Below the pieces are notes generated by a model. The model was not told the DNA's origin, did not search any database, and saw nothing but the letters and a program-made list of their open reading frames with translations. Shown here one piece after another: positions 4,251 through 31,842 of a stretch of DNA of 64,000 nt. The stretch is from Candidatus Woesebacteria bacterium GW2011_GWF1_31_35 (lineage in GTDB: Bacteria; Patescibacteriota; Microgenomatia; UBA8517): positions 200,595 through 264,594 of the forward strand of contig CP011214.1 in NCBI GenBank assembly GCA_001029755.1, written 5' to 3'. The translations under genes and the position numbers were made by a program. The first letter of the stretch is position 1; each line of letters begins with the position of its first letter.

Positions 4251-5639
4251 ATGAAGAAAATTAAAAAATTACCAACAATTTTAGGAATATTAATTTTAAT
4301 ATCTGGTTTAGTAGCTGGAATTTTTTTAGTTAATTCTAGACAAGTTTTTAAGTTAGGAGCAAGTGCTGATTTTGCTCCAAAAAATGTAAGGGTAAGTAAT
4401 ATTACCAATAGTTCTTTAACTATTACTTGGACTACTGACAAAATAAGTAAAGGTTTTATCAAATGGGGCAAAAGCGAATCGGCTTTAAGTAAAACTACGT
4501 TGGAGGAAAATGCTGAAAAAGAATTTATTCATTCAGTAAACCTTCCAGCAATAGAACCCAATACTGATGTATTTTTTAAAATTAATTCAGAAGGTGAAGA
4601 TTTTGACAACAGTGGAATACCTTGGCAATCAAAAACATTATTAGAAAAAACAAATCAGACTAGTTCACTAACAGGATCTGGAATAATTCTTTCCCCTGAT
4701 GGGTCCAGCCCAGCAAAGGCAATTGTTTATTTATCAGTTAATGGGATAGCCCTTTCAAATTTAACCTCCCAGGAAGGTACTTGGATAATTCCAATTTCAT
4801 TGTTTATTGAATCAATTCCTGAAACAACAGTTATTGAGATTTCTGTAATTGATGGACAAGGAGGAACCGCACAAGCTGCAATTTATCCTACAACAATTAA
4901 AAATACTCCAACGATTGTTATAGGTAAAACATATGATTTTAGAAATTATGTTCCTACAGTTGACTCAAATCTTCCTGAAAGTAAACTTACAATACCTGAA
5001 ACAATAGAGATTTCATCAAGATTTGAGGTAGATAATTCAAGTCTTACTTTATCTTCAAATAATGTAGTTACATTAGATTCAATTGATGAGGGGGAAATAA
5101 TTACAACAACTGACCCTCAATTCTTCGGAACTGCACCTGCAAAAACTGGGATTGAAATTTCAGTAGAATCAGAACTTCAAACTGATTCCCTAACTTCAAG
5201 TTCAACTGGAAAATGGAGTTGGAGTCCACCTACTAATTTGGATCCAGGTCAACATACAGTGACAATTAAATGGAGAGATTCAAACGGAATTTTAAGAACC
5301 CTGACAAGAAATTTTGTAGTTCAAGCTGGTGAAGCACCCGCATTTGAAGCAACTCCTTCAGCTACACCTAACATAACCGCAACACCTACAAGTAGTGGGA
5401 TAGCAACTCCAATAACATCGCCTACTGGCACTTCTAGGAGTACTAGTATACCAACAACAATTCCATCTACCACCCCTACAATTAAAGCCAGTGGAACACC
5501 AAAAGCAACAATTTCTGCAACACCAACCAATCCTTCGCTTCCGGAATCAGGAAACTTGACACCAACCATTGGTCTATTCATAATGGGTGTAGGAATATTA
5601 ATGTCGAGTATTTTTGTTTGGAAAAGACAAGATGCCTAA
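4251..5639 (+). CDS. Cell-surface protein with Fn3-like domain and C-terminal LPESG sorting signal
   Basis: N-terminal signal/anchor, an Fn3-like segment (SLTITWTTDKISKGFIKWGKSES), Thr/Pro/Ser-rich stalk, then LPESG followed by a hydrophobic helix and a KRQDA tail. This is the LPXTG-type cell wall sorting architecture. Confidence 0.6.
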   Translation: MKKIKKLPTILGILILISGLVAGIFLVNSRQVFKLGASADFAPKNVRVSNITNSSLTITWTTDKISKGFIKWGKSESALSKTTLEENAEKEFIHSVNLPAIEPNTDVFFKINSEGEDFDNSGIPWQSKTLLEKTNQTSSLTGSGIILSPDGSSPAKAIVYLSVNGIALSNLTSQEGTWIIPISLFIESIPETTVIEISVIDGQGGTAQAAIYPTTIKNTPTIVIGKTYDFRNYVPTVDSNLPESKLTIPETIEISSRFEVDNSSLTLSSNNVVTLDSIDEGEIITTTDPQFFGTAPAKTGIEISVESELQTDSLTSSSTGKWSWSPPTNLDPGQHTVTIKWRDSNGILRTLTRNFVVQAGEAPAFEATPSATPNITATPTSSGIATPITSPTGTSRSTSIPTTIPSTTPTIKASGTPKATISATPTNPSLPESGNLTPTIGLFIMGVGILMSSIFVWKRQDA

Positions 5640-6747
5640 AGATAATAATCAAACACCAATTACACCAACCACCAACAGCGATGATCAATCACCTGTTTTC
5701 ATGGAAGAAACCCTTCCTCCAATGCCACAAGAAGCACCTATAACTCAAGATATGGCTCCAGTAGAAAATAAACAGGATACAAAACCAAACGAAACCCCAG
5801 TTGAAACTCCAATTGTGGATTCAGGTTCAGCTGCACCTCAAGACGATGCAATAATGCCTCCAACGGTAACATCAAAAAATAAAAAAAAGTTTGCAGGAGG
5901 AAAAGTAATCGCAACAATTTTAGGGCTTTTTCTTTTAATTGGTGGTATAGGAGCAGGAGTTTTATTAGTTAAACAAAATCAAAATATAAATGAAAAGGCT
6001 TGGACACAGCAAACTTGTGAAAGTCAGGATGCTATTTTATGCCCTCTTCCTGACTATCAAGCTACCTACGAGGCAGGCAGAGCAAATAATGTTGGTATTT
6101 TAGAAGAATGTTATTGCAAATATATTGGTGGAGGTGGAGGTAGTGGAAATACAGATAATCCGACTTCAGGAACATGTCCAAATGGCAATCCTTTTAACAA
6201 TGAATGTGTAATTATTTATTGTCCAAATGGAGACACAAACAATGATGGAGCTTGTGAGGTACCAGATGTTGGTGCATGGTATGGATCAAAACACACATGT
6301 GGAACAAAAACATTTGGAACTAATGAATGTGGACAAGTTGATCCTGTTGATGATAATGGTGTTTATTGCGAATTACCCGGTTGGGATTACGACATAAAAT
6401 TAAGTAATTGTTCTGGACCTTTACCACCAACCACACCACCTACAGACAATTCAGGTACTGCATCATGTTCAGATGTTAAGGCATATACAGAAAGTTGGGT
6501 TTTGATCCCACAGATTAATCTTCCAAGTCTAAATGTTGGGGATAAAATAAATTTATGTGTTACTGGTACTTCAACTGGAGGAAGTTTTGATATGGCAAGA
6601 TTTAAAGTTAATGGAGTTACCCTACCAGATACAACAACTATAAGGCCTGGATCAAATGATTATTGTTATCTTTACACTATTCCAACAGGAACAAGCACAT
6701 TTAACATAATAGGTCAAATCCATCATACAAGTCTAGGATGGAAATAA
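5614..6747 (+). CDS. Membrane-anchored Cys-rich secreted protein
   Basis: Pro-rich N-terminal region, one TM (VIATILGLFLLIGGIGAGVLLV), then about 24 Cys in Gly/Asn-rich repeats. The start may instead be the ATG at 5632. Confidence 0.45.
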   Translation: MFGKDKMPKDNNQTPITPTTNSDDQSPVFMEETLPPMPQEAPITQDMAPVENKQDTKPNETPVETPIVDSGSAAPQDDAIMPPTVTSKNKKKFAGGKVIATILGLFLLIGGIGAGVLLVKQNQNINEKAWTQQTCESQDAILCPLPDYQATYEAGRANNVGILEECYCKYIGGGGGSGNTDNPTSGTCPNGNPFNNECVIIYCPNGDTNNDGACEVPDVGAWYGSKHTCGTKTFGTNECGQVDPVDDNGVYCELPGWDYDIKLSNCSGPLPPTTPPTDNSGTASCSDVKAYTESWVLIPQINLPSLNVGDKINLCVTGTSTGGSFDMARFKVNGVTLPDTTTIRPGSNDYCYLYTIPTGTSTFNIIGQIHHTSLGWK

Positions 6748-6759
6748 ATTATAAATAAT

Positions 6760-7395
6760 ATGAAAAATAAATTATCAACAATAGTAATAATATTAGTAAC
6801 GATAATTTTAGCTGGAGTTGCAATTTTTACTGCCATTAGATTGTATCAAACAAGAAATACTTCTGTTGCACCTAACGCCCCTTCAAGTAAACCAGAAGCA
6901 TATGGAGGGTCTTGTAGTTTATCTTTTACCTTAGCAACACCTACCAGTACAGCCTCAGGTACAGCTATAGCAACTGCTACAAGTACGGCCACATCGACTG
7001 CTACATCAACTTCAAGAGCGACAAGTACTGCTACATCAACTGCTACATCAACTTCAAGAGCGACAAGTACTGCTACATCAACTGCTACAGCTACAGCAAC
7101 AAGTACAGCCTCAGGACAACCAAACTCTTGTAATGGAACTTGTGGATCAAATAGTAATTGTAGTTCTGGACTATTTTGCTATTCAGGTTATTGTAGAAAT
7201 TCTTCTTGTCCTACAGATACAGATTGTGTGTGTAATGGAACAGCTACACCAACAAGTACATCTACTTCTATTGCACAAGGACCAACATCAACATCAGAGC
7301 CACAACTCCCAGAAGCAGGAACATCATGGCCAACAATTCTTGGTACTGGATTTGGAATATTTATTATTCTAGGTGCACTTCTATTGGCACTTTAA
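6760..7395 (+). CDS. Thr/Ser-repeat surface protein with Cys-rich module and C-terminal LPEAG plus hydrophobic anchor
   Basis: N-terminal TM, (ATSTATSTATSTSR)n repeats, Cys-rich block (CNGTCGSNSNCSSGLFCYSGYCRNSSCPTDTDCVC), then LPEAG and a hydrophobic tail. Confidence 0.55.
   Translation: MKNKLSTIVIILVTIILAGVAIFTAIRLYQTRNTSVAPNAPSSKPEAYGGSCSLSFTLATPTSTASGTAIATATSTATSTATSTSRATSTATSTATSTSRATSTATSTATATATSTASGQPNSCNGTCGSNSNCSSGLFCYSGYCRNSSCPTDTDCVCNGTATPTSTSTSIAQGPTSTSEPQLPEAGTSWPTILGTGFGIFIILGALLLAL
6991..7100 (+). repeat. Tandem 42-bp in-frame direct repeat (acaagtactgctacatcaactgctacatcaacttcaagagcg) inside the surface-protein gene
   Basis: Two perfect copies (7021-7062 and 7063 onward) and one partial copy, encoding TSTATSTATSTSRA units. 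Confidence 0.6.
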
Positions 7396-9821
7396 CGCCA
7401 ACTTGGAAACCAATAATAACTTCTATCTAACCATTCAGGAATTTTAAGTCCTATCCAATGTGGATAGAAATAAATAAAAAGAAGTAGTGTAATTGTAAAA
7501 ATAGGAATAATTGTTTTTGGAAAACGGCGCAAGATAAATCCTGTTGCTATTGTCAAAAATGGAATAGATGGTAGGTAATGATATAGAAACATAATTCTAG
7601 GAGATGCAATCCAGGGAACAAAAAAAATAAGGTAAGAAAATATAATAAATCCCAATTTCTTGTTTCTTTCTTTTGCTGAAATGAAAAATGAAAGTATTAT
7701 AGAAAATAATCCAAACCAAAAAACTGCAGGGTTTCCAAAAGCATAAATTCTTGAAACAAATTCCTTAGTTTCAGGGCCATTATAAAGATAAATAGGACGA
7801 ACAAGCATTGGCCAAGTATAAGCAGGCGAAGTATAAGGATGTTCTGCTCTTAAATTAGTGTGATACCACCACATTTGTTTTTGCACTTCAATGAAGTTTT
7901 CCCAACTATGACCCGTTTTAAACATTATTCCATAACTTGCAATATAAATTGCAATTGGAATAATAAGAAAAGATAGATAAGATATTTTTAATTTCTTTTT
8001 AAAAACAAAATGAGAAACAAAAAATATTGGTAATGTATAAATTGCAGACCACTTGGATGCAATTGCTAGACCAAACACAACTGACGAAAGAAAGTTTTTA
8101 TCTTTTAAGAAAAGGAGAATTGAAAGAAGTGAAAAAAACAAAAGGTATGAGTCATTCATTCCTATCCTACTCATTACTAAAACCAAACCATCAAGTGAAA
8201 AAATTGCTGAAGATAAAATTCCTACAAGCCTGTCCTTAAAAACTAAACTTGCAATCAAATAGACTAAAAGTACCGATCCAACACCCAAAATTGCTTGAAC
8301 AATTCTCCACCCAAATGCATTTTCTCCAAAGATAATCATTCCAAGGGTCATTCCTAGTTTTGCAACAGGTGGGTGAGTCCATTCATATGCAAATCCTTCA
8401 GGATGTGGATTCCACCACTCCCAAGCCTTAGGATCACCATGAAGCACTAACCCAGCAGTAAAAGCATGGTAGACTTCGTCAAAGTATTTTTCTTTTGGAA
8501 GATTTAAAGAATAAATTCTTGTAATAATTGAAAAAAATAAAATACCTAAAAGTAAAATCCTAGCTTTTTTACCTGAAATATCTTTTCCAAAATAATTAAT
8601 TTGTGATTTAACTTTATTTAATTTTAGCCTGAATAAGTCTTCGTATTTAAACGAAAATTTAATTTTTTTAAATTGAGAGATGATAAAAAATAATAACAAT
8701 GAGAGATTTGTAATGATAAAAAATTTGATAATTACTGGATTAAAAATTTCTTTAAAATTATCAGTTATCCAATAGTAAGAATAAGATAAATTAGCAAGAT
8801 AAGTAAAGGAAAATCCTGCATATACAACTAATACAACAGGGTTAGCTAATGAGGCTAAAAGAAGTGGTGCCAAGATTGGCAACAAATGTCTTTCATGCAT
8901 CCTAGTTAAAAACAGAAAAGAAACAAGAAGAGAAATTGCTGAAATTGTATACTCTAATCCCCCTTTCTTTCTTAATAAAAAAAGAACAATGACAATTAAT
9001 AAACAACTGATTCCTGCCCCAATCCAAAAAGATATATTATCAGGTTTCCAAAAATCAAAAAGTCCCCAAAAAGAAAATGCATTTACTGACCCATATGGAT
9101 ATTGGCTAGCTGAAACAGAAAGTCTTTTTAGAATAAACTCAAAAATGTTAGAAGTATTATTAAAAGGAATAAATCCAAATATAAAAACTACTAAACCAGA
9201 AATTATAAAGAATATAATTTCTTTTCCTTTCCATTTATTTTTTATAATTAAATATAAAATTCCAGGTAAGATAAATGCCGCCTGTGGTTTAATTAATGTT
9301 CCAATTGCAAGAATAATTGCAGAGAAAACCTTTTTATTTTTAGATGCCAGATAAACTGCCAAAAGTGAGAAAAATGCAGTTAATGAATCAACTTGTCCCC
9401 AAAGAGAAGAATTAGCAAAAACTGCAGGGTTAAAAAGATAAATTAAAGATAGAATTATTCCCCATTTTTTTACACTTAAATTATTGGCAATTTTATAAAT
9501 TAAATAACCAGTTCCCATATCAGCTAAGATTGCAGGTAATTTAAATAAAATAACCTGAAAAGCTGGAATTAGATTTAATTTTCCTAAAAGCCAAAGTATA
9601 TAAAGATACCCTGGTAGATAATCAGACCAACCAGAATAAAAATTATTAAGACCATTTTGTACTAATGAATTACTCCAAGCAACGAATGTTCCATGATCTA
9701 ATTGTAGTGTCCCAAAATTAGCTAAAAATAATCTTAACGCAAAGGCAGAAAAAATTATTAAGATAATGTTAAAATCAATGTAATGAAAATTAATAACAAA
9801 TTTTTTAAAAATATTTTTCAT
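7392..9821 (-). CDS. Tandem-fused GT-C glycosyltransferase (PMT/GT39-like, two modules)
   Basis: 809-aa polytopic protein. The C-terminal module carries the PMT-type motif KYFDEVYHAFTAG and loop NPHPEGFAYEWTHPP. The N-terminal half is a second polytopic GT-C-like module. Confidence 0.6.
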   Translation of the reverse strand: MKNIFKKFVINFHYIDFNIILIIFSAFALRLFLANFGTLQLDHGTFVAWSNSLVQNGLNNFYSGWSDYLPGYLYILWLLGKLNLIPAFQVILFKLPAILADMGTGYLIYKIANNLSVKKWGIILSLIYLFNPAVFANSSLWGQVDSLTAFFSLLAVYLASKNKKVFSAIILAIGTLIKPQAAFILPGILYLIIKNKWKGKEIIFFIISGLVVFIFGFIPFNNTSNIFEFILKRLSVSASQYPYGSVNAFSFWGLFDFWKPDNISFWIGAGISCLLIVIVLFLLRKKGGLEYTISAISLLVSFLFLTRMHERHLLPILAPLLLASLANPVVLVVYAGFSFTYLANLSYSYYWITDNFKEIFNPVIIKFFIITNLSLLLFFIISQFKKIKFSFKYEDLFRLKLNKVKSQINYFGKDISGKKARILLLGILFFSIITRIYSLNLPKEKYFDEVYHAFTAGLVLHGDPKAWEWWNPHPEGFAYEWTHPPVAKLGMTLGMIIFGENAFGWRIVQAILGVGSVLLVYLIASLVFKDRLVGILSSAIFSLDGLVLVMSRIGMNDSYLLFFSLLSILLFLKDKNFLSSVVFGLAIASKWSAIYTLPIFFVSHFVFKKKLKISYLSFLIIPIAIYIASYGIMFKTGHSWENFIEVQKQMWWYHTNLRAEHPYTSPAYTWPMLVRPIYLYNGPETKEFVSRIYAFGNPAVFWFGLFSIILSFFISAKERNKKLGFIIFSYLIFFVPWIASPRIMFLYHYLPSIPFLTIATGFILRRFPKTIIPIFTITLLLFIYFYPHWIGLKIPEWLDRSYYWFPSWR

Positions 9822-11003
9822 AGTTTCTTTTCAAAAAACAATTTTATATTAATTCCATTATTAATATTTTTTGGAATTTTATTAATATACAAAAATATAT
9901 ATCCTAATCCAAGAAATTGGTATGATCATTATTTATATCTATCAAAATCTCTAATACATGGCTGTGTCGATATACCAGATCTACCTGTATTTTATCACGA
10001 TAAATTAGAATTTAATGGTAAAACTTATATCCCTTTTCCACCAGGAGCATCTTTGGTTTTAATCCCGTTTATTTTACTTAAAGAGAGTATCACGCAACAA
10101 CAAGTATCAATATTGATAGGAAGCTTAGACATCTTATTAATATACTTATTACTTTTAAATTTTACCAATAAAAAGAATGCAATTATTCTCTCTATTTTTT
10201 TAGGATTGGGGACCTCATTTTTTTGGTCAGCTGTAGTTGGAACTACATGGTTTTTTGCCCACGTTGTCTCAATATTCTTTATAACAATTTCATTGATTTT
10301 ACATTTCAATAAAAAACATTTTCTCTCAGGAATTTTCTTTGCTCTCGCTGCACTAACCCGTATTCCAATGGTTCTGGCTGGTATATTTTACTTGTTACAA
10401 TTACTTAAACGAAAGAAAGATTTCATTTACTTCTTAATAGGGGCTTTTATTTTTATTCCAATTTTATTTTTCTATAACTGGGCAAGATTTGGTAATTTTT
10501 TAAAAACAGGATATAACGAGGTTTATCTGCAATATGCAAATTCTAATTACCCTTATACAATAAGGCAAATAATAAACCCCAAATCAACTCTTTATGGATA
10601 CTTTGATATCAAAAATATTCCTATGCATCTATACACATTTTTTATTATGCCACCCGATATCAATATATCTGGGAGAATTGTTAAAGAAATAAAACCTTCA
10701 CCTTTTGGAATGGGAATTTTATTTACTTCTCCACTTCTATTTATTGCATTAAAACCAAAATTTAAAAAAGGTTTGGAACTAAATTCAATAATAACAGCCC
10801 TAATTGTGGCTGTCCCAAGTTTTTTACATATTATGCAAGGCTGGGTTCAATTTGGATACAGATTTGTTTTGGATTTTATAGTTTTTTTGATGATTATATT
10901 GGCACTTCGTTTTAAACCAACAAAATTAAATCTACTATTAATATTAATCTCAATTATAGTAAACTTTTGGGGAGTTATATGGGCAATAAATTTAGGTTGG
11001 TAA
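9783..11003 (+). CDS. GT-C family membrane glycosyltransferase (ArnT/PMT_2-like)
   Basis: 406-aa polytopic protein. Shares a C-terminal motif (QFGYRF..DF..FLM...N.WGV) with the next gene. Confidence 0.45.
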   Translation: MKINNKFFKNIFHSFFSKNNFILIPLLIFFGILLIYKNIYPNPRNWYDHYLYLSKSLIHGCVDIPDLPVFYHDKLEFNGKTYIPFPPGASLVLIPFILLKESITQQQVSILIGSLDILLIYLLLLNFTNKKNAIILSIFLGLGTSFFWSAVVGTTWFFAHVVSIFFITISLILHFNKKHFLSGIFFALAALTRIPMVLAGIFYLLQLLKRKKDFIYFLIGAFIFIPILFFYNWARFGNFLKTGYNEVYLQYANSNYPYTIRQIINPKSTLYGYFDIKNIPMHLYTFFIMPPDINISGRIVKEIKPSPFGMGILFTSPLLFIALKPKFKKGLELNSIITALIVAVPSFLHIMQGWVQFGYRFVLDFIVFLMIILALRFKPTKLNLLLILISIIVNFWGVIWAINLGW

Positions 11004-12139
11004 CAATTTTCATTCCACTTATTATTTTAATAATATATTTTCTTTCTTCTGCTGGAAAAACACCATTTAATCACTTTACATTGCTTGCAGATTCTTTCTT
11101 AAAAGGACATTTATATATCGAAGGGGATTATCCTTGGCTCGAAAAAATTCCCATTGGTGACAATAAATTTTATGTAGCTAATCCTCCAATGCCAGCTATT
11201 CTCGCTATACCTTTTGTTTTTTTCTCAAATAAAAATTTCCCTCAACAGTATATTTCTCACATATTAGGTATGGGAATAATCGGATTAACAATGATTATGG
11301 CATATAGAATTAAAAAGAAATTAAGTTTAATGATTTGGTCAGGATTATTAATTGGACTAGGTTCCATAGTATGGTTTTTATCTTCAGTCGGTTCAGTTTG
11401 GTATCTTGGTCAAATTACCTCAGCATTCTTTTTAACTTGGGCATTAGTCGAAATATTAGGTAAATCAAGGCCAATATTACTAGGAATATTATTGGGCGCT
11501 ACCTTTCTTTCAAGAAGTCATGTTGCCTTAACTTTTCCGTTTATTGTCTTTATGAATTGGGAAAAGTTTAAAAATTTAAAACATTTAAACATATTAATTT
11601 TAGTTTTTTCAATCTTTGCCAGTTTTGGATTTTGGTATAACTTTGTAAGACTTGGAAATCCTTTTGACAATGGTTACAATCTGATTCCTGATGTCAGTAT
11701 ATCATCTTGGTTTGCTCAGGGTCTTTGGAACCCAATATATATACCCAAAAACTTTGATATATTATTTCTAAAAATGCCAGTAATTACAAATACTTTTCCT
11801 TATATTGTCCCATCTCTTGCTGGGATGTCTATAATTCTTACTACTCCTGCTTTTATTCACTCTTTCTTTGCTTCAATAAAAGATATCATCACAAAATTAT
11901 CGTGGATTTCCATTTTAATAATATTATTTATAGTATCCTCGCATGGTGGAACAGGATTCACACAATTCGGATATCGCTTTGCGGTTGACTTTTACCCCTT
12001 TTTAATGTTGCTTACAATTAAGGGTGTGGCCGAACACAACGGACCAAAATGGCACCACTGGTTGTTACTTATTATTTGTATAATTGTAAACACTTGGGGA
12101 GTATTATTTATTAATAAATTTGGCTGGGTAGGTTGGTAG
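10967..12139 (+). CDS. GT-C family membrane glycosyltransferase, tandem paralogue
   Basis: 390-aa polytopic protein with TQFGYRFAVDFYPFLM...NTWGVLFINKFGW, paralogous to the preceding ORF. The two overlap by 37 nt in different frames. Confidence 0.45.
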   Translation: MGSYMGNKFRLVTIFIPLIILIIYFLSSAGKTPFNHFTLLADSFLKGHLYIEGDYPWLEKIPIGDNKFYVANPPMPAILAIPFVFFSNKNFPQQYISHILGMGIIGLTMIMAYRIKKKLSLMIWSGLLIGLGSIVWFLSSVGSVWYLGQITSAFFLTWALVEILGKSRPILLGILLGATFLSRSHVALTFPFIVFMNWEKFKNLKHLNILILVFSIFASFGFWYNFVRLGNPFDNGYNLIPDVSISSWFAQGLWNPIYIPKNFDILFLKMPVITNTFPYIVPSLAGMSIILTTPAFIHSFFASIKDIITKLSWISILIILFIVSSHGGTGFTQFGYRFAVDFYPFLMLLTIKGVAEHNGPKWHHWLLLIICIIVNTWGVLFINKFGWVGW

Positions 12140-14003
12140 CGGTTTTTAAAATTAAAATTCCATTCTTATCATAAACAACCGGATAATCAAATCTTAATTT
12201 TTCTTCATTTATTAGATATTCTCTTCTTTCCCATCCACTTATATAAATGTAATTTATCCCAAATTTCTTTATCAGCTCTTTGTATCCATCTCTTGCATCG
12301 AAAATTGCCAAGATCGCCATTTCTTTATCAGTCGTATCAGTAATCCCGTGTGTCCACAAATAACCACCAAATCCTAGAAATATTTTACGACCAGATAAAG
12401 CAGTTATTATATTATTTGAGTTTCTTGCCGTTAGAAAAATCTCATTGGGACGACTGATCTCTCTAATTTCTTCGGCAATTATTAAATCATTTCTTTTAAA
12501 TATTCCACCGAGCATCCTTGGATCATTAATTGAAATTAGAATACCGGTAACGACTGATAAAAATAAAAAGCAGTAACCTAAAATTTTAACTACAATTATT
12601 TTACTTTCAATCAATTTAATTATTAAATATGAAGCTAAAATTGAAATCATTATATAAGGGTACAAAACAAATCTACTGTTGTCCCAAACATATGGCTGAA
12701 AGATAATTATATTAGCTAGAAATATAATAAATACGTTTACTAAAATAATGTTTCTATTTTTAAATATCTTTTTAAAAAACAACATTACTGATATTATTGA
12801 CCCAAACAAAAAAGGAATACCAAAATTAGTCAAATAGAAAAACAATTTATTATAAGTTCCATCAACAGGCGGCCATTCTGAAAAAGAAAATCTAATAAAG
12901 CTTTTAGATCCTAATGAAGTGAATATTACAGGTAAGATAAAGGCTCCGGAAACAATAAATATTAATAAGCCATATTTAATCCAAAAAAATAATTCTGATA
13001 TTTTTTTAGCTTTTATAGTTTCCGATACAACAACAAACAGAAGCGCTAAAGCAAAAACCAAAAAGGCATAAATATTTGCATATGGTAATAAACCTGCTAT
13101 AAATGCGCTTATAGCAAAGATTCTTAAATTTGTCTTATTGTTTATTAAAAGTATTAATAAATATGTAGCAAAAATCCAAAGTGGTACCCCCACAAGCAAA
13201 GTTCTTTGGGCCATAAGCATTTCGGCAAATATACCAGCATACCCAACGCCTAACTGAGGAAGGTAGGAGAAACGGGTCGTGGCATTGATATAAGTAGACA
13301 AAGGTAATTCATCTAATATAGGTTTTGTAAAACCTAATCCGCCATTAAAAAGAAACAAGAATACTGAAAGATAAGATGCCCTATTATTATTTAATATTTT
13401 AAAAGCCAATAAATAGAGGGAATTAACTAAGAGTAAACCAAAAATGGTAGAGGGAATAATTAGTGAATATCGTAATCCAGAACCTAAGACTAATAATTGA
13501 GCTGAAACAAAGTCAGCAACAAAATGATAATTAATGGTTTTAAAAGAAGCAATTGGGTTGATCGGAGGAAAATTATCTCCATAGGCGAAATTACTAATTA
13601 ACCCTAAATGAAAGGGTAAATCACCACTCGTCGAGGGACTACCGCTTAAATAAGATTCACCAGATTTTAAATGAGTTTGACTTATCACCAAACCAAAACA
13701 GATTAGCCAAAAAATATTAAACAATATATATCCTTTATCAAAACTTATTTTTAATTTGTAATTCTTAAACGTAAATAAATAAAGAGATATTCCACTAAGA
13801 AGCGTTATCCAAGTTGACATTTTGATAGAAAAGATATGACTCAAATAAAAAGATAATAATGCGTTTATTAAGATTCCGGTAAGCATAGAAAAAAATAACA
13901 ATTCTTTTGTATTTAAATGCTTTTGTTTAAAAAGTTTAAACAAAACAGTGAAACCTAAACAAAATGAGGATAGAAAATAAATAGATATATATACAAAACT
14001 CAT
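12111..14003 (-). CDS. Large polytopic membrane protein with C-terminal extracytoplasmic domain (putative GT-C glycosyltransferase)
   Basis: 630 aa: about 12 predicted TM helices followed by a roughly 170-aa soluble domain. It sits among the GT-C genes and the LCP gene. Confidence 0.35.
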   Translation of the reverse strand: MSFVYISIYFLSSFCLGFTVLFKLFKQKHLNTKELLFFSMLTGILINALLSFYLSHIFSIKMSTWITLLSGISLYLFTFKNYKLKISFDKGYILFNIFWLICFGLVISQTHLKSGESYLSGSPSTSGDLPFHLGLISNFAYGDNFPPINPIASFKTINYHFVADFVSAQLLVLGSGLRYSLIIPSTIFGLLLVNSLYLLAFKILNNNRASYLSVFLFLFNGGLGFTKPILDELPLSTYINATTRFSYLPQLGVGYAGIFAEMLMAQRTLLVGVPLWIFATYLLILLINNKTNLRIFAISAFIAGLLPYANIYAFLVFALALLFVVVSETIKAKKISELFFWIKYGLLIFIVSGAFILPVIFTSLGSKSFIRFSFSEWPPVDGTYNKLFFYLTNFGIPFLFGSIISVMLFFKKIFKNRNIILVNVFIIFLANIIIFQPYVWDNSRFVLYPYIMISILASYLIIKLIESKIIVVKILGYCFLFLSVVTGILISINDPRMLGGIFKRNDLIIAEEIREISRPNEIFLTARNSNNIITALSGRKIFLGFGGYLWTHGITDTTDKEMAILAIFDARDGYKELIKKFGINYIYISGWERREYLINEEKLRFDYPVVYDKNGILILKTATNLPSQIY

Positions 14004-15052
14004 AAAATATGATTATTTAACCACTCTTGAAAATCTTTCCAACTACCAGACTTTGGAATAAATACATATTGGTAATCATACTTTTTTAAATTTTGAGAGA
14101 TTTCTAAAAACTTTTCTGGGATTGAAAAGAAATTTATTTTGTTTCTAGATTCAAAGACCAATCTTCCCAATATTAGTAAAGACTTATTATCTAAATTAGT
14201 TTCTACATGAGAAAAGGTAATATCATAAATTTCTTTTAATTTTAAGGGGTTTAATATTATTTCTTTTGATAAAACTTTTTCCTTTATAGCACTAATAACT
14301 TTTTGTTGACGAATTTCTCTTGCCAAATCTGTTCCTTCCAGACCTTCTGAATTTCTACTTCTCACAAATTTTAATGCAGTTTCTCCATCCATTTTAGTAA
14401 CACCTTTTTCAAAAGAAACAGTTTCATATCTACAAGCATATGTTTTGGTTAAAGATAAATTTTGCTTATCATCTTCACATAGATCATTCTCTTTACCCGC
14501 AATTGGATACTTTGAATCTGTAAAGGAATTTTCAACCATCACATTTATTCCACCCAATGTATTTATCAAGTCTTTAAACAAAGAAAAATCTACAACTACT
14601 GTGTATGAAATTGGTATACTTGTTATTTCCTCTATACTTGTATTAACAAGTTCGAAATTATTATTAGATTTTTGTTTTCCCCAATAGTAAGCACTATTTA
14701 ATTTAGCGCGAATTGCAGGTACCCAAACATCTCTAGGAAGAGATAGTATATTTACTTTTTTTGAATTTTGGGAAAGAAATGCAATCATCATTGTATCTGT
14801 TAAATCAGGAGCCGTGTGGCCTTCTCCACCTTTACCTAAAATTAAAATTGATGTGATTCCATTTGAAGATTTAATATTTCCATAATCAAATTTAGAAAAA
14901 AAGATTGATCTTAAAACTAAGAAAAAGATAATTGGCAAAACTACCAAAATGACTAAAAATACCAGGACAACTTTATACTTACCCATGTTACTATTGTATT
15001 TGTTATGAACAACACAAGCAATATTATCAAAAGAGCCAATCAATTCACTCAC
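14000..15052 (-). CDS. LytR-CpsA-Psr (LCP) family cell-wall glycopolymer ligase
   Basis: N-terminal TM then ILILGKGGEGHTAPDLTDTMMIAFL...NILSLPRDVWV...DFSLFKDLINTLGGINV...DGETALKFVRSR, the LCP catalytic-domain pattern. The real start is probably the internal MGKYKVV. Confidence 0.8.
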   Translation of the reverse strand: MSELIGSFDNIACVVHNKYNSNMGKYKVVLVFLVILVVLPIIFFLVLRSIFFSKFDYGNIKSSNGITSILILGKGGEGHTAPDLTDTMMIAFLSQNSKKVNILSLPRDVWVPAIRAKLNSAYYWGKQKSNNNFELVNTSIEEITSIPISYTVVVDFSLFKDLINTLGGINVMVENSFTDSKYPIAGKENDLCEDDKQNLSLTKTYACRYETVSFEKGVTKMDGETALKFVRSRNSEGLEGTDLAREIRQQKVISAIKEKVLSKEIILNPLKLKEIYDITFSHVETNLDNKSLLILGRLVFESRNKINFFSIPEKFLEISQNLKKYDYQYVFIPKSGSWKDFQEWLNNHIL

Positions 15053-15100
15053 CTGTGGACCAAAAATGAAATTGAGTTTGTTACAAACAATATAAAGAAA

Positions 15101-15856
15101 ATGAGTTACAAAGAAATGGGTGCATTTATATCAAGAACTTCTCCATCAATTCAATCAAAGGTTCGATTTCTACCAATCCAACAAAAGGTTAATAAATATA
15201 AAATAAATCAAAAATTTTTTACCAAATGGTCTGAACCAATGGCTTATATATTAGGATTCATAACAGCAGATGGAAATATATGCAGGACAGGAAATTCACA
15301 CATGATCCAAATTGCCTGTGATGACAAAGATATAATAGAAAAAATCAAAATTGAATTATCTTGTGATACACCAATACAGATACGATCAAGACTAAATGGA
15401 AAATCATCCTATCAACTTAGATTTTCAGATAAACATATTTATCAAAATTTAATTAAACTTGGAATAACACCGAGAAAAAGTTTAACTATTAAACCACCTA
15501 TTAAAATACCTCATGTGTTTATTAATGATTATATTAGAGGTTTTTTTGATGGGGATGGTAGTGTTTGGATATCGAAGAGAACCAGACAAGAAAGGCTTGT
15601 TAGTGTTTTTTATACTGCAAGCATAAAAATGATTAAATTTATATTTGAAATAATAAAAAATAACTTTCCATTATTTACCGGAAAAATACAAAGAATACTC
15701 ACACCAAAGAAAAATAGATTCTATTATTCTATAACATTGGGACACAGGGATTCATTACTTTTGTATAAGTATATGTATAAAGGATCAAAAATATTTTCAA
15801 ACAGGAAACATAATATTTTCAAAAAAATATATGACAATCAATTTATCAGAGCTTAA
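15101..15856 (+). CDS. Free-standing double-motif LAGLIDADG homing endonuclease
   Basis: Two LAGLIDADG motifs (AYILGFITADGNI and IRGFFDGDGSVWI) in one chain. The ORF is open from 15005, but that start overlaps the convergent LCP gene, so the ATG at 15101 is preferred. The 3' end overlaps the pcrA start by 26 nt in another frame. Confidence 0.7.
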   Translation: MSYKEMGAFISRTSPSIQSKVRFLPIQQKVNKYKINQKFFTKWSEPMAYILGFITADGNICRTGNSHMIQIACDDKDIIEKIKIELSCDTPIQIRSRLNGKSSYQLRFSDKHIYQNLIKLGITPRKSLTIKPPIKIPHVFINDYIRGFFDGDGSVWISKRTRQERLVSVFYTASIKMIKFIFEIIKNNFPLFTGKIQRILTPKKNRFYYSITLGHRDSLLLYKYMYKGSKIFSNRKHNIFKKIYDNQFIRA

Positions 15857-28023: not shown

Positions 28024-28968
28024 TTATTTCAAATCTTTATAATACTCAATAGTCTTTTGAAGCCCATCAATTAAATCAACTTTTGGTTCCCATTTTAAAA
28101 TACCTTTTGCTTTTGTAATATCAGGACATCTTTGCATTGGGTCATCGGGTCTAAATGAATTTGAGAAAATTACTTCAGATTTTGAATCAGTAAGTTCAAT
28201 AATTTTATTAGAAAGGTCACCAATCTTAAATTCATCTGGATTACCTAAATTAAATATTTCTCCCCTAGTTCCATCCGTAAACATCGCCTTCTTAATCCCG
28301 CTAACCAAATCCGTAATATAACAAAACGACCTTGTTTGGCTTCCGTCACCATCAATTTTTATTGGTAATCCATTAATTGCCCAGTTAATAAAATTGCTAA
28401 TTACTCTCCCATCATCTTTTCTCATATTTGGTCCATATGTATTAAAAATTCTAATTATTCTTGCATCAATTCCATATTTATTTAAAAATACATAAGTTGC
28501 AGCTTCTGCAAACCTTTTGCTCTCATCATAACAACTTCTTGGTCCAAATGAATTTGCATTTCCCCAATAGATTTCTTTTTGAGGATGTTCAAGTGGATCA
28601 CCATAGATTTCTGATGTTGAAGCAATTAATACTTTAGCTTTAATTTCTTTTGCTATATTTAATATATTTAAAGTCCCCAAAGAATTAGCTAAAAGTGTTT
28701 CTTCAGAATTGTTTTGATAATCAATAGGTGAAGCTGGAGAAGCTAAATGAAAAATATATTTTAAGTTTAAATAATCAAATGTTAAAGGTTTGATAACATC
28801 AGCCTCAATAAATTCAAAGTTTGGATTAGTTAATAGACTTTTAATGTTTCCCCTATTTCCAGTAATTAAGTTGTCAAGGCAAACTACTGCAAAACCATCA
28901 CTGAGTAAACTATTACAAAGATGGCTTCCAATAAACCCCACCCCACCTGTTACCAAGATTTTTTCCAT
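28024..28968 (-). CDS. UDP-glucuronate decarboxylase (UDP-xylose synthase), SDR family
   Basis: ILVTGGVGFIGSHL Rossmann motif; catalytic SCYDESKRFAEA (YxxxK); overall UXS-like. Confidence 0.75.
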   Translation of the reverse strand: MEKILVTGGVGFIGSHLCNSLLSDGFAVVCLDNLITGNRGNIKSLLTNPNFEFIEADVIKPLTFDYLNLKYIFHLASPASPIDYQNNSEETLLANSLGTLNILNIAKEIKAKVLIASTSEIYGDPLEHPQKEIYWGNANSFGPRSCYDESKRFAEAATYVFLNKYGIDARIIRIFNTYGPNMRKDDGRVISNFINWAINGLPIKIDGDGSQTRSFCYITDLVSGIKKAMFTDGTRGEIFNLGNPDEFKIGDLSNKIIELTDSKSEVIFSNSFRPDDPMQRCPDITKAKGILKWEPKVDLIDGLQKTIEYYKDLK

Positions 28969-30465
28969 ATGTTAGAATTATATAGCATGAACAGAATTAA
29001 AAAAATAATCGCTAAAATTGATACTCCACTTTGGCTTGAAATTCTTTTTGCAGTATTACTTATTCTTCGTATTCCATCATTTTTTGAACCCTATTATTAT
29101 GGCGATGAAATGATTTATTTGACACTAGGAGAAGGAGTAAGACAGGGTGTTCCACTTTATCTTGGTCTTCACGACAATAAGCCTCCCCTACTTTATTTAA
29201 CTGCAGCTGTAGCTGGAAACCTATTTTTCTTTAAAGTAATTTTAGCTTTCTGGTCTCTTATTACGGTTTACGGTTTTTGGAAATTAATAAGTTCAATTTT
29301 TCCCGAGAAAAAAACTCTACATAAAATTTCAACTATTATATTTGGGCTTCTTACTACTTTACCACTTTTAGAAGGAAATACAGTAAATGCGGAATTATTT
29401 ATGATAGGACCAATTATTTTTGCATTTTGGATACTTTTAACCAAAAAAAATAACTTTAAAAACGTATTTATTTCAGGAGGCTTAATTTCAATAGCAGCAC
29501 TTTTTAAAATTCCAGCTGCTTTTGATATTTTAGGAATAGTTGCCTTCTGGGCTATATTTGTTAAAAAAGATACTTTTTTTGAGTTTATTAAAAAATGTAT
29601 TTACTTAAGTTTAGGATTCATTGTTCCAATTGGCCTTACATTTATTTGGTATTATTTTGCTGGAGCATTGAAAGTATATTTAGTTGCGGCGTTCTTACAA
29701 AACTTTGGCTACGTTTCAAGTTGGAGACCGACAGATATCGCTAAACCATTTTTAGTTAAAAATGCCCCTCTTCTAATCCGGGCTGGAATTTTCGTTTTAG
29801 GTATTGGGGTATTATTTATTTCCAAGAAAAAATTTTCCAAAAACTTTATATTTGTTTCAGCTTGGCTTCTGGCTACTCTTTTCGCAGTCACCTTATCAGA
29901 GCGCCCTTACCCACATTATTTTGTACAATCAATTGCCCCTGTATCAATTTTATTGGGCATGTTGATAACCCTAAAAACAATTGAGCAAAGTTTGGTTGTA
30001 ATTCCATTAACTCTAGTTTTTTTCGTACCTTTTTATTACAAATTTTGGTATTACCCCACAAGTACTTATTATTTACGATTTATCGACTTTGTAAGTGGAA
30101 AAATTACAAAGGATGTATATTTTTCTAAGTTTTCTCCAAATGTAAATATGAATTATAAATTAGCTGATTTTTTAATTAAGTCATCAAATAAAGACGATAA
30201 AATATTTATTTGGAGTAACGATGCCCCTGCAATTTATTCTCTTTCTAGAAGGTTGCCTCCTACTAAATATGTTGCAGATTACCACTTTTTAGATTTTTCA
30301 AATAAAGAATATGTATTTGATGTTCTTTCAAAAAATAAACCTAAATTTATAATAATCACACCAAACTCTTTTAGATTTCCAGAACTTTCTGATTTTGTCC
30401 AAAAAAATTACTATTTAATTTCTGAGGTTGATTCCTCCCAAATATGGCTTTATATAAAAAAATAA
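28921..30465 (+). CDS. GT-C family glycosyltransferase (ArnT/PMT_2-like) with C-terminal soluble domain
   Basis: Polytopic N-terminal half containing the YYYGDEMIYLTLGEG loop (a DE motif typical of lipid-linked-donor GT-C enzymes), followed by a roughly 130-aa C-terminal domain. Confidence 0.5.
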   Translation: MASNKPHPTCYQDFFHMLELYSMNRIKKIIAKIDTPLWLEILFAVLLILRIPSFFEPYYYGDEMIYLTLGEGVRQGVPLYLGLHDNKPPLLYLTAAVAGNLFFFKVILAFWSLITVYGFWKLISSIFPEKKTLHKISTIIFGLLTTLPLLEGNTVNAELFMIGPIIFAFWILLTKKNNFKNVFISGGLISIAALFKIPAAFDILGIVAFWAIFVKKDTFFEFIKKCIYLSLGFIVPIGLTFIWYYFAGALKVYLVAAFLQNFGYVSSWRPTDIAKPFLVKNAPLLIRAGIFVLGIGVLFISKKKFSKNFIFVSAWLLATLFAVTLSERPYPHYFVQSIAPVSILLGMLITLKTIEQSLVVIPLTLVFFVPFYYKFWYYPTSTYYLRFIDFVSGKITKDVYFSKFSPNVNMNYKLADFLIKSSNKDDKIFIWSNDAPAIYSLSRRLPPTKYVADYHFLDFSNKEYVFDVLSKNKPKFIIITPNSFRFPELSDFVQKNYYLISEVDSSQIWLYIKK

Positions 30466-30816: not shown

Positions 30817-31842
30817 ATGGCTAAACTAATTAGTCTTCTTTTTATACCACTTTTCTTTTCATTTTTGATTTCATATTTTATTACTCCAATAGTAATTAGG
30901 TTTGCAAAGAAACTTAAAATTATGGATGACCCAAGAGGAAAAACTCATCCTAAAATAATTCATGATAAACCCACTCCAAGAGGTGGTGGAATTCCTGTAT
31001 TTATCGCAATTTTAATTGCATCACTTGTTTTTATCCCAATAGATAAACATCTAATTGCAATTTTAATTGGAGCATTTGTCATCTTTGTAATGGGATTTTT
31101 AGATGATAGATATAACCTAAACCCATATTTAAGACTTGCAATTGGAATGGTTGCTGCTTTAATTCCAATATTATCAGGTATAGGAATATCATTTTTAACT
31201 AATCCTTTTGGAGGAATACTTGATCTATCAAATCCCCTTATTTCTGACCTTTTCGCTCTTATTTGGATAGTTTTTATGATGAACATGTTAAATATGGGGG
31301 CTAAAGGAATTGATGGGCAACTTTCAGGAGTTACAGTTATTTCGGCAATTACAATAGCAGCCCTTTCTTTTTATTATTCAGCAGACATTACCCAATGGCC
31401 AGTAATAATTTTAACAGCAGTAACTGCTGGGGCATTTTTAGGTTTTTTCCCTTGGCATAAATTCCCTCAAAAAATTATGCCAGGATATGGTGGCGCAACA
31501 CTTGCTGGATATATGCTAGCTATTGCATCAATTCTTTCTACAACTAAAGTGGGGACATTAATTGTAGTTTTAGGTATTCCACTAATTGACACGGGTTATT
31601 CAATTATTAGAAGAATTCTTTCAGGAAAATCTCCTGTTTGGGGAGATAGAGGCCATCTTCATCATAAACTTTTAGATTCTGGTCTTTCTAAAAAACAGGT
31701 TTCACAAGTCTATTGGTCACTAACAGCAATCCTTGGAATTTTAGCTTTAAATTTGAATGCTACTAATAAGTTATATACAATTGTGGGTGTTGTGTTTCTA
31801 ATAGGAGGAATTATTATATGGTTAACATATCGCTCCAAATAA
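30817..31842 (+). CDS. Polyprenyl-phosphate HexNAc-1-phosphate transferase (MraY/WecA family)
   Basis: FLDDRYNLNP (the DD motif) and NMLNMGAKGIDGQLSG (the N..N..DG.DGL motif) are hallmarks of the WecA/MraY superfamily. At 341 aa it is WecA-sized. Confidence 0.7.
   Translation: MAKLISLLFIPLFFSFLISYFITPIVIRFAKKLKIMDDPRGKTHPKIIHDKPTPRGGGIPVFIAILIASLVFIPIDKHLIAILIGAFVIFVMGFLDDRYNLNPYLRLAIGMVAALIPILSGIGISFLTNPFGGILDLSNPLISDLFALIWIVFMMNMLNMGAKGIDGQLSGVTVISAITIAALSFYYSADITQWPVIILTAVTAGAFLGFFPWHKFPQKIMPGYGGATLAGYMLAIASILSTTKVGTLIVVLGIPLIDTGYSIIRRILSGKSPVWGDRGHLHHKLLDSGLSKKQVSQVYWSLTAILGILALNLNATNKLYTIVGVVFLIGGIIIWLTYRSK

Follow-up and report, generated by a model that had tools for sequence, protein, structure and literature searches.

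The locus lies in a 64,000-nucleotide stretch of contig CP011214.1 from Candidatus Woesebacteria bacterium GW2011_GWF1_31_35, referred to here as the window. The open reading frames A, B, C, D and LCP (LytR-CpsA-Psr) are found where a first-pass annotation had placed them (Table 1). That annotation had counted five GT-C glycosyltransferase genes in addition to LCP, whereas the locus consists of four polytopic genes with five GT-C modules, and the LCP gene. The first outer loop of each module contains an acidic residue that is highly conserved; it does not vary in the GT87-like, PMT and D modules, and in 83 of 94 B-family alignments it is Asp or Glu.

Table 1. Features of the GT-C locus and of the second glycan cluster in the window
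Feature	Position	Strand	Description
S1	4251..5639	+	462 aa; surface protein; N-terminal TM, fn3/Big_13, Thr/Ser/Pro-rich stalk, LPESG + TM + KRQDA
S2	5614..6747	+	377 aa; single-TM, Cys-rich and Pro/Thr-rich exported protein; TM 101-119
S3	6760..7395	+	211 aa; N-terminal TM, (A/S)T repeats, Cys-rich knot, LPEAG + C-terminal TM
A	7392..9821	-	809 aa; GT87/ALG6-like + PMT (GT39) fusion
B	9783..11003	+	406 aa; GT-C family without characterized member; divergent from A
C	10967..12139	+	390 aa; tandem paralogue of B
D	12111..14003	-	630 aa; rare GT-C
LCP	14000..15052	-	maximal ORF; glycopolymer transferase, one N-terminal TM anchor
Sixth GT-C candidate	28921..30465	+	514-aa ORF (annotated 498 aa); YYGDE in first loop
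WecA-like	30817..31842	+	polyprenyl-phosphate GlcNAc-1-P transferase (GT4/MraY superfamily); PF00953 2.7e-23
DPPR synthase-like	31818..32756	+	UbiA-family polyprenyl-phosphate phosphoribosyltransferase; NF008978 (decaprenyl-phosphate phosphoribosyltransferase equivalog) 226.8 bits, above cutoff 207

Gene A encodes the two-module fusion with a PMT-type DE motif that had been described previously. A GT87/ALG6-like module (residues 1 to ~385, positions 8667-9821) is connected to a bacterial-type PMT (GT39) module (residues ~415-809, positions 7392-8579) through a Lys-rich linker that presumably lies in the cytoplasm. The former matches Pfam GT87 over residues 68-303 (38.4 bits, cutoff 25, E = 1.5e-9), and its profile matches PIG-M (1.6e-6) and ALG6 (3.6e-6) in the PDB. 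The latter exceeds the cutoffs of three Pfam PMT models (PMT_4TMC, E = 3.9e-20; PMT_2, 2.6e-14; PMT, 3.4e-12; residues 483-808, 72.6 bits against a cutoff of 32.4), and the NCBIfam actinobacterial Pmt equivalog gives 69.9 bits, far under its cutoff of 800. The stretch KYFDEVYHAFTAG holds an intact FDE (residues 447-449) that lines up with FDEV in yeast Pmt1, and the module aligns, FDEV included, with both yeast Pmt1 and the PMT in 9i5k. For the DE motif and C-terminal 4-TM region, the alignment reaches E = 3e-8 to 9i5k and 7.9e-5 to 6p25. D42 of the N-terminal module and D448-E449 of the FDE are kept in 67 of 67 homologous stretches. Across 16 sequences from several phyla, D42, W49, D101, WGQxD, KP and R311 of the GT87-like module are invariant, and besides Asp42 there are about 20 further positions invariant across phyla. 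Since it keeps these conserved polar residues, the GT87-like module looks catalytically active and probably also adds a sugar.

Genes B and C are indeed tandem paralogues (29% identity over 373 aa, E = 7e-26) that share the block QFGYRF..DF and belong to the same operon, their maximal ORFs overlapping by 37 nt. There is no Pfam model for the B family, which has the hallmarks H49, D73, PFPP and QFGYRF..D, and B is the founding member here of an uncharacterized GT-C family. By its likeness to B, C would have the same fold; its orthologues (47-78% identity) come after B in most Microgenomates loci. The only library model touching B and C is NF047440 (LA_3751/LA_3752 putative glycosyltransferase, Leptospira), itself an uncharacterized family, which aligns over nearly the full length of both; at 27 and 24 bits, under the cutoff of 200, they are not members of it. 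The predicted structure of D, a confident model (pLDDT 88), has three additional N-terminal helices and includes the extra soluble C-terminal domain that had been proposed (residues ~497-622, ~125 residues). Its best structural match is AftA, a polysaccharide arabinosyltransferase to which it is 10% identical. The slot between B/C and LCP varies by genome and may hold D, DUF2298, PMT_2, PIG-V-like or other polytopic proteins, which is the pattern expected for variable glycan decoration.

The GT87-like module, the PMT module and the B family behave as one evolutionary unit. Loci were found with the B family alone, and the 80 that we analyzed are the best-scoring of 536 and not a random sample; within these best 80, homologues of both modules lie at most 6 kb from the B-family gene in 64, and the median gap in B-family loci is 318 bp. 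The unit spans CPR, Chloroflexota, Binatia, Myxococcota-like and other lineages. The GT87-like and PMT modules form one fused protein in most loci and are separate genes in some, and a 2,012-aa protein from two sources carries the GT87-like module (hhalign E 2.6e-53), PMT and B family in a single chain. An operon from Chloroflexia includes an extra 276-aa GT2 whose size and type match those of polyprenyl-P-sugar synthases.

We favor, with about even confidence, the hypothesis that the locus is an extracytoplasmic protein O-glycosylation machine whose GT-C enzymes would use polyprenyl-phosphate-linked sugars. The first-pass annotation had left the choice between heavy protein O-glycosylation and a wall-attached glycopolymer; the former fits the evidence better, and the latter, made through LCP, does not hold up as well. 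For PMT-family enzymes whose DE motif is intact, the only activity known to us is mannosyl transfer to Ser/Thr of proteins. In the order of action that we infer, the PMT module would take a hexose, presumably mannose, from polyprenyl-P-hexose and attach it as the first sugar to Ser/Thr of proteins emerging from Sec, the GT87-like module would pair with PMT as Pmt2 does with Pmt1 and Rv0051 with mycobacterial Pmt, and B, its paralogue C and accessory D would extend or branch the glycan. Against this reading, neither a polyprenyl-P-mannose synthase (small GT2) nor a sortase was found among the ORFs of the window, and the PMT module falls far short of the actinobacterial Pmt equivalog cutoff. The elongating enzymes of actinobacterial O-mannoglycans are not known (PMC11727336).

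Among the known systems closest to this arrangement are the actinobacterial and eukaryotic protein O-mannosyltransferases. Mycobacterial Pmt is found in complex with a GT87-like protein, Rv0051, and in Paenibacillus a fusion of GT39 with GT87 is on record (bioRxiv 10.64898/2026.07.15.738315). Like actinobacterial Pmt (M. tuberculosis Rv1002c), A has no MIR domain and possesses the first-outer-loop Asp-Glu and the PMT_4TMC C-terminal block; the GT39-GT87 pairing with Rv0051/ML2687c is common to both but is a covalent fusion in A. The mycobacterial GT87-like partner is reported to be without catalytic residues, whereas the module of A has the invariant Asp42. Furthermore, the window encodes nothing that corresponds to the beta-propeller (Rv3212) or DivIVA-like (Rv1209) subunit of mycobacteria, and the B family, a third GT-C tightly linked here, is outside the described mycobacterial complex. 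The eukaryotic Pmt1-Pmt2 heterodimer (GT39) also pairs GT-C modules and aligns in the DE motif and C-terminal 4-TM region, but A is without a MIR domain, its partner module is GT87/ALG6-like instead of a second GT39, and bacterial polyprenyl phosphate would serve in place of dolichyl phosphate.

The likeliest substrates of such a machine would be S1-S3, whose genes lie immediately upstream and which are rich in Thr/Ser/Pro and have LPXTG-type signals; S1 and S3 are each candidate substrates. S1 matches Pfam Big_13 and fn3, reaches 70% S/T/P over 40 aa and ends in a sortase-type sorting signal with the tail KRQDA; its orthologues have LPETG or VPETG followed by a TM and a basic tail, and in relatives it always lies between pilN/pilO and gene A. 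S3 is 43% S/T/P overall and 70% over 40 aa, has orthologues with LPDAG + TM, and is convergent with A, which it overlaps by 4 nt. S2, with 25% S/T/P and no Pfam match, is conserved between the two, with orthologues in syntenic loci. Together with pilN/pilO, S1-S3 form a conserved operon, and the features of S1 and S3 are conserved beside A in all Microgenomates loci. This adjacency, seen in Microgenomates, may reflect only strong regional synteny.

The LCP assignment is borne out by PF03816 (105.9 bits, 2.7e-30) and TIGR00350 (92.3 bits, cutoff 62.3), and the protein aligns with TagV, TagT, TagU and Cps2A. As homologues are 302-329 aa long, the true start is likely the ATG at 14986 and not that of the maximal ORF. 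The domain is not degenerate: the pyrophosphate-binding motif is kept, and the spacing R-x8-D-x2-R-x3-Q, equal to that of Cps2A R362/D371/R374/Q378, is conserved clade-wide (residue roles from PMC7831098). The Arg of the 'RSD' motif is Leu in the entire clade. We take LCP to be a functional glycopolymer transferase.

A second glycan cluster in the window includes a WecA-like enzyme (TIGR02380 wecA, 102.7 bits, below the cutoff of 326, versus 52.8 bits for mraY) that would initiate a glycan linked to polyprenyl-PP, the kind of substrate that LCP enzymes take, and a DPPR synthase-like enzyme whose predicted product is a lipid-linked pentose donor for GT-C enzymes. The sixth GT-C candidate has no Pfam match, but several of its >1,300 homologues match PMT_2 and bear the JGI name 'ArnT-like glycosyltransferase'; its C-terminal domain bears a weak resemblance to the one in D (hhalign E 4.6e-4, probability 33%). 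A doubtful alternative is a wall-attached glycopolymer, in which the GT-Cs would polymerize or branch a polysaccharide on a polyprenyl-PP primer on the outer side of the membrane and LCP would ligate it to peptidoglycan, after the model of mycobacterial arabinogalactan (WecA, DPPR synthase, Aft/Emb GT-Cs, Lcp1). The window likewise has a WecA-like GT4, a DPPR synthase, several GT-Cs and an LCP, as well as a Wzy_C protein, MurJ and a DedA/UptA-like carrier recycler. The adjacent LCP is intact, and D overlaps its stop by 4 nt and is probably co-transcribed downstream of it, which links at least D to LCP. The fold closest to D is that of AftA, at 10% identity, and not that of a protein glycosyltransferase, which counts against the favored reading. 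On the other hand, the WecA-like and DPPR genes are 12-18 kb away from the GT-C cluster, with DNA-repair and tRNA-synthetase genes in between. A link between the two clusters is conjecture, and the window shows no DprE1/DprE2, no galactofuranosyl transferase and no Emb-type protein. UbiA and LCP are absent from D-family neighborhoods elsewhere, where PMT/PMT_2 and GT2 genes do occur, and in most relatives LCP is monocistronic and convergent with C. LCP lies near the B family in 10 of the best 80 of 536 loci, all in Microgenomates, and the A-B core is without it in all 70 of those 80 that are from other lineages. Hence the array proposed earlier, a single pathway ending in LCP, is not supported in that form; what recurs across phyla is the GT87-like/PMT/B-family unit, and the LCP adjacency is lineage-specific. 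In Microgenomates synteny extends over all of the MurJ-to-RmuC region, and the adjacency there is accordingly of little weight. The established function of DE-intact PMT, on proteins, is a further point against the glycopolymer, and the donor for LCP more likely comes from the WecA-like/DPPR-synthase/ArnT-like cluster at 26.5-32.8 kb.

It is improbable that the GT87-like module, B, C and D elongate an outer-leaflet glycolipid, such as a lipomannan- or LAM-like molecule or a glycosylated lipid anchor, acting as PimE, MptA/B and PIG-M/PIG-V do, with a lipid or lipoprotein as the acceptor of the PMT-like module. The N-terminal module does fall in Pfam GT87, the PimE family, with a profile that matches GPI mannosyltransferase 1, and PIG-V-like mannosyltransferases occur in the same cluster of relatives. 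ALG6/ALG8 (GT57), PIG-M (GT50) and PimE (GT87) are ALG6-like GT-Cs that use lipid-linked monosaccharide donors, but sequence identity is ~10%, their acceptors are lipid-linked glycans and not proteins, and the B family has its own hallmark QFGYRF..D. The strict coupling and fusion to a canonical DE-motif PMT speak for a protein as the acceptor in the first step, and the window shows no cytoplasmic GT4 priming enzyme of the PimA/PimB type. Finally, it is likewise improbable that LCP itself transfers a lipid-PP-linked glycan, decorated by the GT-Cs, to the neighboring LPXTG proteins before sortase anchoring, as modeled on Actinomyces oris LcpA and GspA: LPXTG-type, S/T-rich proteins are encoded <7 kb from LCP and the clade-wide Arg-to-Leu change might mean an altered acceptor, but the one precedent is from another phylum, the linkage is confounded by region-wide synteny, and PMT already accounts for Ser/Thr glycosylation without LCP.

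We therefore retain protein O-glycosylation as the preferred reading. What is new here is the GT87-like module, the PMT module and the B-family gene as a conserved unit, in a Woesebacterium with a tiny genome that has four adjacent genes, with five modules, for extracellular membrane sugar-transferases.

The best-supported reading of this locus, drawn from sequence, is that it would encode machinery for protein O-glycosylation, in which a conserved core of three modules is joined by accessory GT-Cs that differ between lineages. The core, which we call the trio, comprises a GT87-like module and a PMT module, both carried here by the fusion gene A, and a GT-C of the family that includes gene B and its neighbor C; D is an accessory GT-C gene next to a LytR-CpsA-Psr (LCP) gene. 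The first-pass annotation had described five GT-C genes ending in an LCP enzyme. The GT-C and LCP assignments stand, but the genes are four polytopic ones plus one LCP, and a total of five holds for GT-C modules because A contains two. That annotation had also named two ways in which it could fail, namely that the GT-Cs are really transporters or that the LCP domain is degenerate; both were examined and neither describes these proteins. Of its two proposed functions, protein O-glycosylation fits better than an LCP-dependent wall-glycopolymer pathway.

Features of the 64,000-nt Woesebacteria window, in window coordinates
Feature	Position	Strand	Description
MurJ flippase	785-2494	-	
pilN, pilO, small ORF, S1-S3	2804-7395	+	conserved operon
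S1	4251-5639	+	fn3/Big_13; 70% Ser/Thr/Pro stretch; C-terminal LPESG + TM + KRQDA
S3	6760-7395	+	43% Ser/Thr/Pro; (A/S)T repeats; ends LPEAG + TM
A	7392-9821	-	809 aa, long ORF
B	9783-11003	+	406 aa, long ORF
C	10967-12139	+	390 aa, long ORF
D	12111-14003	-	630 aa, long ORF
LCP	14000-15052	-	350 aa as maximal ORF
LAGLIDADG-type ORF	15005-15856	+	283 aa, free-standing; PF14528 8.6e-9
Second glycan cluster	26518-32756		500-aa GT2; SDR sugar dehydratase/epimerase; 514-aa ArnT-like GT-C; 121-aa ORF without family; WecA-like GT4; DPPR synthase
DedA-family protein	42211-42849	+	
DUF4012 and Wzy_C proteins	48854-52789	-	772 aa; 375 aa (O-antigen ligase/polymerase-like)
dnaA, dnaN	54995-57668	+	probable replication origin region
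M23-peptidase and TraG/VirB4-like proteins	58731-63447	-	931 aa; 637-aa P-loop ATPase

The window has a GC content of ~30%. The D protein is 100% identical to UR11_C0001G0238 of Candidatus Woesebacteria bacterium GW2011_GWC1_30_29, encoded on a 598-kb contig. The maximal ORFs of A and B overlap head-to-head by 39 nt (9783-9821), whereas a spacing of ~20 nt separates the two starts in relatives. Either the divergent promoters are therefore within coding sequence, or one of the starts has been annotated too far upstream. The LCP start is probably the ATG at 14986, since its homologues are 302-329 aa long. The LAGLIDADG-type ORF between LCP and UvrD overlaps the maximal LCP ORF and looks like a recent homing-endonuclease-like insertion, because LCP and UvrD are directly adjacent in the syntenic loci L002-L010.

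The C-terminal module of A (aa 483-808) has both the PMT/PMT_2 N-terminal core and the PMT_4TMC C-terminal block of GT39 enzymes above the Pfam gathering scores (PMT 46.9 bits, cutoff 22.7; PMT_2 54.2, cutoff 26.1; PMT_4TMC 72.6, cutoff 32.4). A phmmer comparison with the PDB aligns this module to fungal PMTs and places the FDE of FDEVYHAF (aa 447-449; D448-E449) on the FDEV of yeast Pmt1. The Asp-Glu motif of the first extracytoplasmic loop is thus present, and FDE is kept in all 67 homologous stretches from other genomes. There is no equivalog-level match to the actinobacterial Pmt model NF058602 (69.9 bits against a cutoff of 800), and on these scores the module is a distant superfamily member, not an orthologue-level match of actinobacterial Pmt. 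The N-terminal module matches Pfam GT87 over aa 68-303 (38.4 bits, cutoff 25), although the boundary between GT87 and ALG6_ALG8 is soft, since the orthologue at the Chloroflexia locus L018 scores 1.6e-5 with ALG6_ALG8 and 4.8e-4 with GT87. D42, an acidic residue in the first outer loop, is kept in 67 of 67 homologous stretches and in all 16 sequences of a cross-phylum alignment, where 21 N-module columns are invariant, including D42, W49, D101, W141-G-Q-x-D145, K178-P179, and R311. The N-module profile further matches GPI mannosyltransferase 1 (E = 1.6e-6) and ALG6 (E = 3.6e-6), with the DYPP-like and HE[KR] motifs aligned. With these invariant columns and profile matches, the N-module looks like a catalytically active ALG6-like/GT87-like GT-C and not a decayed one. 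A Lys-rich linker, read from the sequence, joins the two modules and would suit placement in the cytoplasm ahead of the first PMT helix.

B and C had been proposed to be tandem paralogues with a common QFGYRF..DF block, and their 29% identity over 373 residues (E = 7e-26) bears this out. Neither these two proteins, nor D, nor the 514-aa protein of the second glycan cluster has a Pfam match even at E <= 10, and NCBIfam gives B and C a faint match to LA_3751/LA_3752, an uncharacterised 'putative glycosyltransferase' model (27 and 24 bits against a cutoff of 200). Because searches of PDB sequences with the B- and D-family profiles returned chance matches only (ATG3 and triosephosphate isomerase), both families were placed by fold comparison. 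B has a polytopic GT-C architecture in a confident model whose best structural matches are GT-C enzymes, and C is assigned by paralogy. Across 94 family alignments the block G353..Q-F-G-Y-R..D364 is invariant (94/94), H49 is kept in 89, position 73, the candidate acidic residue of the first outer loop, is Asp (as in B) or Glu in 83, and PFPP, W156, and R193 are conserved. An exhaustive profile search recovered 3,729 cluster representatives at a threshold of E <= 1e-3, of which 2,112 also pass E <= 1e-10. The B family is a real, sizeable, unnamed GT-C family. Further fusions of B-family proteins are found among P0341/P0422, P0284, P0382, and P0404; they include two proteins, of 925 aa and 2,504 aa, that fall in one cluster, a fusion to an N-terminal YfhO fragment, and two cases with N-terminal CBM_4_9 carbohydrate-binding domains.

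Synteny extends over the entire region in other Woesebacteria and Microgenomates (MurJ - (S20) - PilN - PilO - small ORF - S1 - S2 - S3 - A - B - C - LCP - UvrD - two FemAB - AddA-like - RmuC), and gene adjacency there consequently says little about function. A survey used the B family as bait, with one genome per species, and the best 80 of 536 loci were scored. GT87-like and PMT homologues both lie within 6 kb of the B homologue in 64 of these 80 loci, with a median gap of 318 bp; seven loci have one of the two and nine have neither, including three in which B is too near a contig end to tell. The loci come from Patescibacteria, Chloroflexota (Dehalococcoidia, Chloroflexia, Limnocylindrales, and Anaerolineae), Binatia, Polyangiaceae and 'Deltaproteobacteria', Thermodesulfobacteriota, a Propionibacteriaceae MAG, and a Sulfotelmatobacter MAG. 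At most loci one ORF spans both the GT87-like and the PMT module, with a length of ~800 aa in Microgenomates, ~1,170-1,270 aa in the delta/Binatia group, and ~1,700-1,800 aa in Chloroflexia, which rules out a Woesebacteria-specific fusion; at some (L013, L016, L018, and L028) they are separate adjacent genes. The L018 operon reads GT87/ALG6-like - PMT - B-like - methyltransferase - 276-aa GT2, the last being of the size and type expected of a putative polyprenyl-phosphate sugar synthase. All three modules are joined in the 2,012-aa protein P0393 (GT87-like at 23-487, hhalign E 2.6e-53; PMT at ~1005-1400; B family at 1605-2008), a triple fusion present on two contigs, one from JGI and one from NCBI. 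That the modules of the trio act together is strongly supported by their linkage across phyla and by their fusion in pairs and as a threesome.

In contrast to this constant core, the position occupied by D varies. D is rare, with only 29 homologues, four of which touch DUF6798, and BLASTP detects no relationship between D and A. It has a GT-C architecture with a conserved loop Asp: every family member keeps D128 and H132 of the loop STxGDLxLHLG, and by the positive-inside rule this loop would face outward, after three extra N-terminal helices. The fold of D is most like that of AftA. An identity as an oligosaccharyltransferase of the STT3/PglB/AglB type was rejected, the likeness being at the level of fold and the WWDxG motif being absent from both D and its family consensus. 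In most syntenic relatives D is absent and C abuts LCP; elsewhere the same slot holds a DUF2298 protein 25% identical to D (L001), a PMT_2 protein (L011), a PIG-V-like mannosyltransferase (L012), or an unassigned 10-TM protein (L009), and in a Dehalococcoidia locus a PIG-V-like gene follows the B homologue. Surface glycans whose details vary among lineages usually show this pattern, in which the core stays constant and the periphery is exchanged.

The LCP domain is sound. It passes both curated cutoffs (PF03816, 105.9 bits against 24.6; TIGR00350, 92.3 against 62.3), follows a single N-terminal TM (aa 28-46), and keeps the pyrophosphate-binding cluster VRSR-x8-D-x2-R-x3-Q, conserved in 13 clade members with spacing identical to that of R362/D371/R374/Q378 in Cps2A, the residues that bind lipid pyrophosphate (PMC7831098). 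The Asp of its LTD aligns with the Mg-binding Asp of the TagV 'RSD' motif (PMC7831098); the Arg of that motif is Leu in 13 of 13 clade members, so that the substitution is a lineage feature and not decay. An overlap of 4 nt between D and the LCP stop codon makes a shared transcript of the two genes probable. An LCP gene accompanies the B family at only 10 of the best 80 loci, all from Microgenomates, where the entire region is syntenic. This argues against the earlier view of the array and LCP as a single pathway, and the best-supported reading is that LCP is linked to the GT-C array loosely, if at all.

The second glycan cluster keeps a wall-polymer function alive for D with its AftA-like fold, for which an arabinogalactan-like pathway would be the model. 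In this cluster a UbiA-family enzyme passes the equivalog cutoff for decaprenyl-phosphate phosphoribosyltransferase (DPPR synthase; 226.8 bits against 207). The homologues of its 514-aa membrane protein match PMT_2 and are named ArnT-like, and the WecA-like GT4 scores 102.7 bits with TIGR02380 against 52.8 with mraY. LCP enzymes transfer polyprenyl-PP-linked primers of the kind that WecA-type enzymes produce, which makes the second cluster a more natural supplier for LCP than the PMT-centred array. The genes of an arabinogalactan-like pathway lie in two separate clusters, the WecA-like score is below the TIGR02380 cutoff, and D resembles AftA by fold only. No DprE1/E2 epimerase is present in the window, and three D-family neighborhoods elsewhere have no UbiA/DPPR or LCP association; PMT/PMT_2 and GT2 genes adjoin the D-family members in two of them. 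A pathway to lipid-linked pentose donors would be worth separate study in a CPR genome.

Other envelope genes lie in the same window. The DedA-family protein, whose UptA match is weak (47.9 bits against a cutoff of 250), and the MurJ flippase are relevant to the lipid-carrier recycling that many lipid-linked glycosylation steps involve. The DUF4012 and Wzy_C proteins, near the YidC/dnaA origin region, are further envelope-glycan candidates. Just past dnaA/dnaN, the M23-peptidase and TraG/VirB4-like proteins suggest a type IV secretion- or conjugation-like module.

Returning to the O-glycosylation machine, potential substrates are encoded beside it, as the three genes between pilO and A (S1, S2, and S3) all encode exported proteins. 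In Actinobacteria, PMTs classically act on the Thr/Ser/Pro-rich regions of proteins exported by Sec (PMC11727336), which makes S1-S3 attractive candidate substrates, although their adjacency to A is confounded by synteny. S1 ends in a complete sortase signal, with an LPXTG-type motif, a hydrophobic segment, and a basic tail, and its orthologues have LPETG or VPETG. The S3 signal, LP[DE]AG plus TM with no basic tail, is weaker than that of S1, and its orthologues have LPDAG. The Ser/Thr/Pro-rich stretches, too, are strongest in these two proteins. A scan of the window ORFs, down to a length of 120 aa for the sortase domain, detected neither such a domain nor a small Ppm1-type GT2. S1-S3 may be wall-anchored parts or cargo of a CPR type IV pilus apparatus; pilM and pilQ were not seen beside pilN/pilO in the window.

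The closest known system is actinobacterial protein O-mannosylation, with which this locus shares the pairing of a GT39 enzyme and a GT87-like protein. The mycobacterial Pmt complex contains the GT87-like Rv0051/ML2687c, a β-propeller protein, and a DivIVA-like protein, and its GT87-like partner is read as non-catalytic and Pmt2-like (bioRxiv 10.64898/2026.07.15.738315), in contrast to the catalytic-looking N-module found here. GSDH-type beta-propeller genes adjoin the trio in two Chloroflexota loci (L013:12661-15026 and L018:5379-6902); they echo the β-propeller subunit Rv3212 of the mycobacterial complex, and an analogous role in gating acceptors is conceivable for them. Fusions of the kind seen in A have been described before, with GT39 enzymes of Paenibacillus joined to a GT87 enzyme (bioRxiv 10.64898/2026.07.15.738315). 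What appears new is the breadth of the GT87/GT39 pairing across phyla, the catalytic-looking partner, and the third GT-C family, whose linkage is tight and reaches as far as fusion; we found no literature on GT-C glycosyltransferases in Patescibacteria.

Work on bacterial protein O-mannosylation has centered almost wholly on Actinobacteria, in which the enzymes that act after the first mannose are stated to be unknown (PMC11727336). Since elongation must happen outside the membrane, GT-C enzymes would be logical candidates. All of these functions are inferred from fold, motifs, synteny, and fusions. We tentatively put forward an extended proposal that, taken as a whole, we regard as less likely than not: the trio might be an obligate three-part O-glycosylation holoenzyme, present in at least six bacterial phyla and sometimes a single polypeptide of ~2,000 aa, in which the B family (QFGYRF..D), and perhaps the catalytically intact GT87-like module too, would be the extracytoplasmic enzymes that extend O-mannosyl glycans past the first mannose. 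The Woesebacteria machine would then coat the wall-anchored proteins of the type IV pilus operon, with D and other lineage-specific accessory GT-Cs diversifying the glycan.

This locus and the 64 like it extend the Pmt/GT87-like pairing to the CPR, Chloroflexota, Binatia, and delta-/Myxococcota-like lineages, and the trio provides concrete candidates for O-glycan elongation, among them a B family of ~3,700 clusters that is still nameless. For CPR biology, our results suggest that ~1% of a CPR genome of roughly 0.6 Mb or more is devoted to glycosylating a few wall-anchored surface proteins near pilus genes, and surface proteins in that position could matter for host attachment.
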